DNA from: Escherichia coli
GTDB taxonomy: Bacteria; Pseudomonadota; Gammaproteobacteria; Enterobacterales; Enterobacteriaceae
Reading direction: 5' to 3' (one strand)
DNA: 64,000 nt
Assembly (NCBI RefSeq): GCF_022846255.1
Contig: NZ_AP025682.1
Made by a program: the position numbers and the translations under genes. Under the pieces are notes generated by a model, which saw only the letters and a list, made by a program, of their open reading frames with translations, was not told where the DNA came from and did no database searches. The first letter of the stretch is position 1. The number at the start of each line of letters is the position of its first letter. Of the stretch, positions 43,600 to 45,300 are shown piece by piece.

Positions 43600-45300
43600 C
43601 GGACACTCTCGTGTAAAAAGCTACCCTGTCTATGGATATAGCGATATCCACTCATCAAGCGTGGACTGAATGATATTCAGCTCCATATGGGCGGAAACCT
43701 GGAGGATAAATACGATTTCGCCGTTGGAATCAAGGTTGTTCTGCAATATCTACCAGACTGCTTCAATTTATCTGTTTTGGCAGTGCAATAATCTTAATTT
43801 AACTATTTGAAGATGATGATATTGTCAGATGCCAGAAATTTAGTAATCTGGAGAACCGTGTCTATGATCACTAAATATTAAAGTAATAGTCGATAATTCA
43901 GTAGCACATCGGGTAATATAACGTATTGATACATAATCATATTAAAAAATTCGTGATTAAATAACATAAGAATATGTTTTATTATCATTAAAAAACCTTC
44001 TATTTCCATCATCCTTAAGATAATAAAACAGCGAATGATGGATAACTTGACCAGAAAAACAAGCAAGCATATAAAATTAAAAAATATGATTCCACTTTCA
44101 TTTTTATAAAATGGCATCGTGAAGAGCGAGTTGATAATGCTGCAATGCATCAGCGTCCTGTCCAGCAGTTTCATAAATTTTGGCAATGTTATAATAGGAG
44201 TTAGCGCGCGTTGTCGCCGCATTTACCCCACTCGCTAACGAGATCGCTTTACGATTTGCCCAAATTGCTTCCGCTATGTTGCCATTTTTCTGATACGCCA
44301 GACCCAGGTTACTAAATGCCTGTCCGTAATTGCCGTCTAATTCTGTTGCCTGTTGGAAGAGTTGAATGGCTTGCTCAAGTTGACCGGTTTTATAAACAGC
44401 TTCACCTTCGCGATTATATTTTCTTGCCAGTTGAGTATCTCCACTGTTTTGCATCGCAGGCGAAGCCGGAGCTGAAGAGTCCGTCGCAGGCATTATCACA
44501 GTGGCTAAATCCCTGACGTCTAATGTGGTGTCGTTAAAATTGGCGCTGGTAACAGAGTTGATATCTTCAAACTCGCCGTTTGGATTGAGTTTAAACACGG
44601 TCCAGATGTTCCCTCGTTTTCCAGCAGGGACACTATAACTACGTACCAGGGAGCTCCCTACATAAACAAACACTCTTGCCTTACTGGCAGAGAGATAATT
44701 ACTGTTGGGCAACCCTTTATTGCTATAGTCCTGCACGGCATAGATGTAACTTTCACCAAAATGCTTTTTGCTGATAGTGACAGTTTCTGGTCCATAGCTA
44801 TCCGTATCATCAACATCCAGATTGGCATCAGTTCCCTCTTTACTATCAAAATAGATATGTCCGCCAGGGAAGATCAAATGCGAATCAAGATCAAAAGGCT
44901 TTTCGCCCCAGCTCAAAACTACACGCATGCCATCCAGATTCGTCATCACCGGACTGATAGCATAAGTCATGCCAGCGCACGGACATTTGACCACCAGATT
45001 GGAATACCCCTCTTTTTTGACGATTAATAGAGCATCTTTATTATCAGCAAATGAAGTCCCCAAACTAATGCTGCCCGAAGTATTTGTGGTTCCAGAAACA
45101 GATTGTGCGCCATTGCGTTGCAGCGTCATCGATGCTCCTTCAATGCGTTTATCTTTCACTGTCGCACTTAAAATATCGATATTTACATCGGCCGCATAAA
45201 CGTCCGAATTTATACCCATCAGGGCCAGAGCAACCGGCAGAACAATTTTCTTCTTGTATAAATGCTTTTACAGAACGGAGAGGGGATATTTTGCCGGGCA
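43600..45300. other. AT-rich strain-specific segment between cydAB regulatory region and sucD/sdhX (boundaries approximate)
   Basis: Composition visibly more A+T-rich than the flanking core genes; carries one ORF; no integrase or flanking direct repeats recognised. Confidence 0.55.
44104..45219 (-). CDS. Hypothetical multi-domain protein: signal-peptide-like N-terminus (encoded upstream of first ATG), beta-rich N-terminal and central domains, Pro/Ser/Ala linker, three C-terminal TPR repeats
   Basis: 371 aa ORF-track ORF; TPR-like repeats recognisable in the last 110 residues; in-frame upstream codons 45267-45220 encode KHLYKKKIVLPVALAL. Confidence 0.6.
   Translation of the reverse strand: MGINSDVYAADVNIDILSATVKDKRIEGASMTLQRNGAQSVSGTTNTSGSISLGTSFADNKDALLIVKKEGYSNLVVKCPCAGMTYAISPVMTNLDGMRVVLSWGEKPFDLDSHLIFPGGHIYFDSKEGTDANLDVDDTDSYGPETVTISKKHFGESYIYAVQDYSNKGLPNSNYLSASKARVFVYVGSSLVRSYSVPAGKRGNIWTVFKLNPNGEFEDINSVTSANFNDTTLDVRDLATVIMPATDSSAPASPAMQNSGDTQLARKYNREGEAVYKTGQLEQAIQLFQQATELDGNYGQAFSNLGLAYQKNGNIAEAIWANRKAISLASGVNAATTRANSYYNIAKIYETAGQDADALQHYQLALHDAIL

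Follow-up and report, generated by a model that had tools for sequence, protein, structure and literature searches.

A tetratricopeptide repeat gene at the sucD-cydA junction of Escherichia coli is probably an old resident going out of use

The DNA between cydA and sucD differs among strains of Escherichia coli, and the question raised here is what fills this junction in a stretch of 64,000 nucleotides from contig NZ_AP025682.1 (assembly GCF_022846255.1), hereafter the window. On its minus strand, cydB and cydA are followed by a gap of 2,680 bp and then by sucD and sucC; a preliminary description of the same sequence had put this gap, correctly, at about 2.7 kb. The sole long open reading frame (ORF) in the gap (44104-45219, minus strand, 371 codons) encodes a tetratricopeptide repeat (TPR) protein, and that description saw in it a different, foreign cargo at the site where K-12 carries mngR, mngA and mngB (mngRAB). 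We consider instead, with a probability of about 0.7, that this is an old sucD-sdhX/TPR/cydAB junction of Enterobacterales, kept in a subset of B2-type E. coli, in which the gene is going out of use. On this reading, the intact gene product would leave the cytoplasm by way of a Sec signal peptide and would consist of a small immunoglobulin (Ig)-like domain, a TerD-fold beta-sandwich and a capped three-repeat TPR module. The window allele would be damaged in four elements (ATG to AAG, AAGGA to AAGCA, the last 20 codons and the terminator), so that the ORF would most likely give no exported product and be a young pseudogene. The AT-rich DNA downstream would be an extended cydAB control region with debris of earlier insertions, not cargo, and mngRAB would be missing either through never having been inserted or through excision, with the sdhX terminator and a degenerate copy of it as end points.

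The damage to the gene was found by comparison with intact alleles. The intact gene of sequence type 131 (ST131) strain THO-015 encodes 397 residues, and the protein begins with MKKIVLPVALALLGMNAGAYA/ADV. On inspection, MKKIVLPVALALLGMNAGAYA/AD was assigned as a probable Sec signal peptide, since it has a pair of lysines, a core of hydrophobic residues and an A-x-A site. The same reading frame in the window gives KKKIVLPVALALMGINSDVYAADV instead of MKKIVLPVALALLGMNAGAYA. Both the start codon and the Shine-Dalgarno sequence are mutated (Table 1); in the intact allele the AAGGA stands eight bases upstream of the start codon. No ATG, GTG or TTG was found in frame between the upstream in-frame TAA and 45219, and the ATG at 45219, where the annotated ORF begins, is codon 13 and lies inside the ancestral signal peptide. 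No Shine-Dalgarno sequence precedes this ATG, and the window allele has no signal peptide behind a usable start codon. The 3' end is also affected. The BLAST breakpoints show that homology to THO-015 ends at 44126 and that the window is without 259 bp, which in the intact gene hold the last 20 codons (ending in YTEKNKPSYEEAIARVKTKM) and the gene's own hairpin terminator (GTGGGCATC-TGAT-GATGCCCAC-TGTTT). The C-terminal capping helix (residues 384-396 in the intact model) was deleted in this way; its pattern is Y..AI.R(M/V), and in an alignment of 24 family members Y386 and R392 are shared by at least 90%. Microhomology was considered as a mechanism of the deletion, since CTGGCG occurs at both ends in ST131, but the window junction is not an exact copy of it and we propose no mechanism. 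The codon of W332 (44262-44260) is still TGG in the window. Start codon, Shine-Dalgarno sequence, C-terminus and terminator are thus all lost relative to intact orthologues, as in a pseudogene. The ORF had been described as a TPR-containing, apparently exported protein; the TPR part was confirmed by Pfam, and the mutated start and truncated 3' end mean that the ORF is not the intact gene.

The lesions are not peculiar to the window. A megablast search of 42779-45458 was made against 5,426 complete E. coli genomes. In 1,104 of them the matches, at 95-99% identity, extended over 80% or more of the query, and each of these genomes has a gene annotated as 'tetratricopeptide repeat protein'. The other genomes matched just the cydA-proximal part and the 3' untranslated region (3'UTR) of sucD. 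The TPR gene is therefore carried by about 20% of complete E. coli genomes rather than by most of them, and it is uncharacterised. The alleles were sorted with 55-mer probes centred on the start single-nucleotide polymorphism (SNP), each 28-base seed being forced to include the SNP, and with 131-mer probes across each junction. The AAG start haplotype was present in 540 genomes, the direct sucD-TPR junction in 546 and the 3' deletion junction in 538; the three markers go together in these 538-546 genomes. The intact ATG haplotype and the intact 3' end were each found in 565, and the degraded and intact classes together account for approximately all TPR carriers. The degraded class includes 536, LF82, NRG 857C, ATCC 25922 and the type strain ATCC 11775, all of them known as B2 strains. 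Ten start-lost alleles, the window's among them, were extracted; all had AAG and the identical truncation. In addition, TGG had become TAG at codon 332 in four of the ten (ATCC 25922 and three clinical isolates). W332 is the conserved W of the AIWANRKA repeat, and the Prokaryotic Genome Annotation Pipeline (PGAP) marks these alleles as pseudogenes with an internal stop. With moderate support, this is a further disabling mutation in the start-lost haplotype. The exact window allele was absent from all 5,426 genomes, the best match being 97.9% over the gene. The same gene has decayed by a different route in E. coli E69 (CP089930.1, locus L036, 1696-2429), in which residues 89-239 are internally deleted between intact sucD and cydA flanks.

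The strongest alternative is that the allele still functions: translation would begin with the ATG at 45219, or with a non-AUG codon, and give a leaderless or poorly exported Ig-like/TerD-fold/TPR protein under selection. We regard this as unlikely. Several observations do weigh against a gene out of use. The 371-codon ORF is open in six of the ten sampled start-lost alleles (window, 2A, LF82, DSM 30083, 536 and CEA212U), and PGAP calls a normal coding sequence in the open-ORF strains. The ratio of nonsynonymous to synonymous polymorphism (pN/pS) among start-lost alleles is 0.15-0.33, despite up to 4% nucleotide divergence, which at face value could mean continued constraint. The ATG at codon 13 occurs only in the start-lost haplotype, the intact allele having TTG, and could serve as a replacement start. 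Furthermore, the W332 stop is one shared event and not several independent ones. Against a functional allele, the putative replacement start is without a Shine-Dalgarno sequence, its leaderless product would be devoid of the signal-peptide n- and h-regions when all relatives carry a signal peptide, the conserved C-terminal helix is gone from the start-lost allele, and the nonsense codon at the conserved W332 is present in four of the ten sampled strains, including ATCC 25922. The low pN/pS is accounted for by mosaic tracts common to intact alleles. In the window, the tract at about nucleotides 167-460 of the gene (44833-45139) has the same states as the intact ST131 allele. Of the 40 differences from strain 2A, the closest genome, 26 cluster in this tract, and the first 78 nt of the gene differ from ST131 at 18 sites. 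This tract is a recombination patch in a degraded gene, and the diversity of the start-lost alleles would have been imported by recombination among old alleles, to judge from these patterns. Because the alleles are recombination mosaics, pN/pS is uninformative on selection after the lesions.

The view that the gene is a recently acquired, foreign single-gene cargo at the mngRAB site of K-12 is very unlikely in the light of what is found outside E. coli. We scanned one genome per GTDB species with a single-protein query and obtained 31 TPR loci; such a scan detects close relatives only and does not show the gene to be absent from Salmonella, Klebsiella or other Escherichia species. Synteny was then read by tblastn with the window's flanking proteins. 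The order sucC-sucD-TPR-cydA-cydB was present in Enterobacter sp. BIGb0383, Pectobacterium fontis and P. zantedeschiae, and TPR-cydA-cydB was seen within the extracted stretch of P. brasiliense and of a fourth Pectobacterium. Pseudocitrobacter vendiensis has sucC-sucD-TPR-mngR-mngA-mngB, and there, as in the window, the TPR upstream region comes immediately after the sdhX terminator. The orthologues of Pectobacterium, Enterobacter sp. and Pseudocitrobacter have kept both the signal peptide and the C-terminal helix and are intact. Related taxa have the gene at this very site, contrary to what is expected of island cargo. Within E. coli, ST131 carries the TPR gene beside mngRAB with no replacement, and since both coexist the TPR gene is not an alternative to mngRAB. 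From the sucD/cydA synteny in other genera and this coexistence, it follows that the gene is long-standing at the junction and that the order in the window is old. What looked like foreign cargo is an older occupant of sucD-cydA, and the K-12 reference state would be the derived one, with mngRAB inserted and the TPR gene lost.

The cargo view had started from base composition, and the contrast it relied on is real. The sliding G+C is 0.26-0.40 at 42900-44100, 0.43-0.47 across the TPR ORF and 0.50-0.57 in the flanks, and the exact value for the non-coding 42779-44103 is 0.319. The ORF has an overall G+C of 0.447 against 0.53-0.54 in the flanks, and a G+C at third codon positions (GC3) of 0.419 against 0.54-0.65 in cydA, cydB, sucC and sucD. 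Its G+C (0.45) is the joint lowest among window ORFs of at least 200 codons, and its GC3 is tied with one other for the lowest among the 33 window ORFs of at least 300 amino acids. Orthologues in other genera also lie 5-8 G+C points below their own sucCD; because they are equally low, the low G+C of the gene is not evidence of recent import. Also in favour of cargo are the carriage of the gene by no more than about 20% of E. coli genomes and the scattered distribution of distant homologues (40-56% identity) in Bacteroidota, Cellvibrio, Nitrosomonadales and Campylobacterota (Sulfuricurvum and a Helicobacter). Lateral exchange of alleles does occur, since the TPR gene tree is incongruent with that of SucD among Enterobacterales. 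Identity of the TPR protein against SucD is 78% against 92% between Enterobacter sp. and Pectobacterium, and 64% against 95% between E. coli and Enterobacter sp. Evidently, recombination in the conserved flanks carries alleles from one lineage to another. On the other side, neither an integrase nor an insertion sequence (IS) element was found in 42779-45458 (ORF list and family search of the ORFs), as had been described before, and no tRNA was noticed there, although no tRNA scan of this segment was made. Mobility genes, flanking repeats and a tRNA target, as expected of an island, were not seen for the window segment. The earlier impression that the site is free of repeats does not hold for other strains, in which a repeat signature, a duplicated sdhX 3' end, is found where mngRAB sits; this insertion signature belongs to mngRAB and not to the TPR gene. 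Two other genes of the window, which neighbour each other, also have a low G+C or GC3 (given as G+C/GC3), 12963-14015 (minus strand) with 0.49/0.44 and 14136-15152 (plus strand) with 0.45/0.47; by NCBIfam, one of them is 4-oxalomesaconate tautomerase-like and the other a LysR regulator.

The repeat signature concerns the 3'UTR of sucD, which is the small RNA sdhX (RybD). Its seed TTCGACATGGT lies at 45395-45385 and its intrinsic terminator at 45383-45366, and the window seed is identical to the published sdhX seed (PMC6393394). A search of 42500-45700 with Rfam 15 (E up to 1) gave no match, sdhX included, despite the presence of the published seed and of the terminator. The interval 45360-45458 is conserved at 97% in nearly all E. 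coli, and the variable DNA all starts just past the sdhX T-tract. A stretch of 5.56 kb that in ST131 comes after the sdhX terminator and before the TPR upstream region is absent from the window. In ST131 the mngRAB segment is bounded by the sdhX 3' end, GTTTCGACATGGTTGGCCATCTTATGATGGCCTTTTTT, and, after mngB, by a degenerate copy, GTTTCTCAGAAAGTTCAGGTCATCTCCGGATGGCCTTTTTG; a local alignment of the two bounds scores 17, against 8.2 +/- 1.4 (maximum 15) in 500 shuffles. The degenerate copy in THO-015 is about 45 nt long (locus L006, 5039-5110), lies downstream of mngB and has a mutated seed and terminator, so that mngRAB is bracketed in this strain by two sdhX-like terminators. The window holds a single sdhX copy, and remnants of mngR, mngA and mngB were searched for in it and not found. 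Such a repeat pair is the signature expected either of a target-duplicating insertion or of later excision between the copies. The homology of K-12 to ST131 ends exactly at the mngB stop codon. In K-12-type genomes the spacer between mngB and cydA (locus L004, 9640-9843) stands in place of the TPR gene and contains a palindromic sequence, GCCGGATACGGCATGAACGCTTTATTCGG..., which was recognised by eye as resembling repetitive extragenic palindromic elements. The mngB genes of the ST131 type (L006, 5134-7769) and the K-12 type (L004, 9842-12477) are 74% identical in the last 200 bp by the hotspot, and identity climbs steeply to about 95% towards the 5' end, a gradient that points to an ancient recombination breakpoint within mngB.

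Four layouts of the junction were found in E. coli. These are sucD-mngR-mngA-mngB-cydA in the K-12 type, where the preliminary description had rightly placed mngRAB, the window strain differing at this point; sucD-mngR-mngA-mngB-TPR-cydA in the ST131 type; sucD-TPR-cydA in the window type; and, in the island type, sucD, a LysR regulator, an island of about 14 kb with methylaspartate mutase, methylaspartate ammonia-lyase, fumarase and cobO, and cydA. Beside sucD, the island-type strains carry a LysR regulator and a hypothetical ORF of 100 codons (strain SCU-482, locus L007, 14701-15003 and 13572-14477), neither of which resembles the TPR gene; in SCU-482 the two hypothetical genes beside cydA are frameshifted. 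Literature searches for the methylaspartate island next to cydA, for the sucD-cydA junction and for the TPR protein accessions returned nothing specific.

The non-coding DNA between the ORF and cydA, which had been put at about 0.5 kb, measures 1.3 kb, and about 0.64 kb of it is cydA upstream DNA shared with other strains. Both FNR-type boxes of the preliminary description were located, at 43061-43074 with one mismatch and at 43113-43126 with none. These boxes and the proximal region are conserved everywhere, including in Pectobacterium and Enterobacter, and divergence begins at about 43130-43160 and continues upstream. The control region 42779-43415 has an identity of about 91% with the island type (637 bp; locus L003, 7998-8638) and of about 80% with the K-12 type, there over the proximal 380-480 bp alone (L004, 8998-9480). 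The spans that contain cydA are about 95-96.5% identical and far less diverged than the cydAB upstream alleles, and the input of ArcA or H-NS upstream of about 43160 may differ between lineages. Between two AT-rich spacers, whose ORFs gave no NCBIfam match, we found a relic of the S subunit of methylaspartate (glutamate) mutase. It comprises about 34 codons, corresponds to residues 69-102 of the intact protein, contains an in-frame stop and has a local G+C of 0.46; its translation in the window reads I-K-R-G-L-N-D-I-Q-L-H-M-G-G-N-L-E-D-K-Y-D-F-A. By tblastn the match is 51% over 35 amino acids in the window (E 7e-5) and 57% in THO-015 (E 3e-6), and by blastn it is 79% over 53 bp. The relic has the same orientation, and lies on the same side, as the intact gene in methylaspartate-island strains. 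From this resemblance, the island or part of it would once have stood between the TPR gene and cydA in the lineage of the window. That 43416-44103 hides a functional element (a small protein, a small RNA or a lineage-specific cydAB module) is highly improbable. In favour of such an element, ST131-type strains share the 0.69 kb with the window at about 97%, and promoter-like hexamers number 14 where 8.8 +/- 2.7 are expected. Against it, such an excess is what AT-rich DNA yields, the segment has no Rfam match and no ORF with a family match, part of it is demonstrably a gene relic, and 80% of E. coli are without it yet have normal cydAB regulation.

The intact protein was examined as a three-part molecule (Table 1). 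The TPR repeats (residues 278-380) are the sole Pfam matches, and they form the tandem 34-residue helix-turn-helix repeats of the Pfam TPR models; in NCBIfam, there were sub-threshold TPR families and nothing else. An AlphaFold2 model from 24 homologues, with a mean predicted local distance difference test score (pLDDT) of 89 and a predicted template modelling score (pTM) of 0.85, consists of a signal helix, a beta domain at residues 23-100, a second beta-sandwich at residues 108-240, a helix that serves as linker, and a capped set of three TPRs. The N-terminal domain includes most of the mosaic patch at 44833-45139. In the central domain, the motifs R-V-V-L-x-W(-G), D-L-D-x-H (D-L-D-S-H here), L-D-V-D-D(-T) and G-P-E-T are invariant or nearly so, and the conserved acidic residues D122, D124, D147, D149 and E157 are suggestive of calcium-binding acidic loops, as far as can be read from the alignment. 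Neither Pfam nor the PDB sequences gave a match to this domain, whether it was searched alone or as a 20-sequence profile. A phmmer search of 1.84 billion cluster representatives gave 5,517 matches at E<=1e-3, with 3,066 at E<=1e-10, and many of them sit at the C-termini of very large proteins. As this beta-sandwich family is without a Pfam-A model, it could merit a family definition of its own. The two-domain beta module turns up again in the AlphaFold database, among SLH-domain, subtilisin-family, Cna-B and PEGA proteins, and the full-length look-alikes are all uncharacterised. The gene neighbourhoods of two non-enterobacterial homologues had no conserved partners, and therefore give no operon-based clue to function.

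From its domains, the intact protein may act on its own in the periplasm as a binding or adaptor protein: the acidic TerD-fold domain would bind a metal or a small ligand, and the TPR groove a peptide of a partner. A bolder proposal, which appears improbable to us, is that the intact gene defines a widespread but unstudied extracytoplasmic module, made of a carboxypeptidase-regulatory-like domain and a Pfam-less acidic TerD-fold domain and coupled to TPRs in enterobacteria, that its position between sucD/sdhX and cydAB could mean an envelope or respiratory role, and that the start-lost B2 allele is leaderless and under selection. The locus had been named the best candidate for an uncharacterised function in the window. 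The gene is indeed uncharacterised, but this degraded allele makes a poor candidate. Work on function should turn to the intact gene of ST131 or Pectobacterium, a modest lead that consists of an uncharacterised family and a Pfam-less domain. Hundreds of B2 genomes have the 371-residue ORF in RefSeq as an ordinary protein, despite its start within the signal peptide and the loss of the original start codon. Taken as a whole, this is an ordinary eroding, strain-variable locus and not newly acquired cargo.

Table 1. Coordinates of the features at and around the sucD-cydA junction of the window
Feature	Position	Strand	Basis
cydB	40052-41191	-	ORF list
cydA, conserved flank	41207-42778	-	ORF list; annotation of strain 2A locus
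cydAB upstream control region	42779-43415	-	Alignment of E. coli with Pectobacterium/Enterobacter
AT-rich spacer, G+C 0.33	43416-43620	.	Common only to other TPR carriers
Methylaspartate (glutamate) mutase S-subunit relic	43621-43722	+	tblastn, blastn
AT-rich spacer, G+C 0.28, without recognisable content	43723-44103	.	Composition; family and Rfam searches
Novel tail LHDAIL and stop, product of the 259-bp deletion	44104-44124	-	BLAST breakpoints, alignment
Three TPR repeats, residues 276-377	44125-44430	-	Pfam TPR_11 and TPR_12; PDB TPR matches
Central TerD-fold beta-sandwich, residues 104-246	44518-44946	-	
N-terminal small beta-sandwich, carboxypeptidase-regulatory-like, residues 22-103	44947-45192	-	AlphaFold2 model; names of AlphaFold database matches
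Ancestral signal-peptide codons KKKIVLPVALALMGINSDVYA, cleavage before AD	45193-45255	-	Comparison with 397-residue protein, family alignment
Lost start codon, AAG (intact allele: ATG)	45253-45255	-	Allele alignment
Shine-Dalgarno remnant AAGCA (intact: AAGGA; G-to-C at 45264)	45263-45267	-	Allele alignment
mngRAB insertion point of ST131-type strains (none of it in the window)	45350-45357	.	BLAST breakpoints against THO-015, junction alignment
sucD 3'UTR, sdhX (RybD) small RNA	45360-45458	-	Terminator scan, seed
sucD, conserved flank	45459-46328	-	ORF list; annotated as sucD in strain 2A (locus 99.2% identical)

Among known proteins, RefSeq WP_000725054.1 (E. coli ST131, 397 amino acids) is the same gene at the same locus as the window ORF. 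The truncated forms WP_148983762.1 and WP_000538730-734 (371 amino acids) have the start and end lesions of the window, and the window ORF is 97% identical to the form of strain 2A; no described function was found in the literature for any of these accessions. The TerD family (tellurite-resistance TerD and SCO6318; PDB 2qz7 and 2kxt) is a calcium-binding beta-sandwich. The central domain shares the beta-sandwich fold with it at just 17% identity, and the TPR protein would be exported, not cytoplasmic, and has the domain fused to others. Membership in TerD (PF02342) was rejected, as neither the protein nor the domain alignment matched the Pfam TerD model and the profile matched nothing in PDB; the resemblance is limited to the fold. 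Some relatives are named YfaP/DUF2135 (COG4676) by the Joint Genome Institute (JGI) and UniProt, and the two-domain beta module is found in many surface proteins. Membership in DUF2135 was also rejected, since its Pfam model matched neither the protein nor the family alignment at E up to 10, and the name 'YfaP, DUF2135 family' is a loose COG label. PilF/PilW, CpoB (YbgF) and NlpI are likewise periplasmic or lipoprotein TPR adaptors, but they differ in their N-terminal domains and gene context, and the NCBIfam scores were far under the cut-offs (24 bits against 154 for PilW, 13 against 250 for NlpI). As a locus, the interval between sdhX and the cydAB control region resembles the core-operon hotspots of E. 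coli in having at least four alternative contents (mngRAB, mngRAB with TPR, TPR alone, and the 14-kb methylaspartate/glutamate-fermentation island), and it is a compact, core-flanked example in which debris of past states is visible. Unlike hotspots with mobility genes, no tRNA, integrase or IS element was seen at sucD-cydA, and turnover there appears to proceed through homologous flanks and short repeats.

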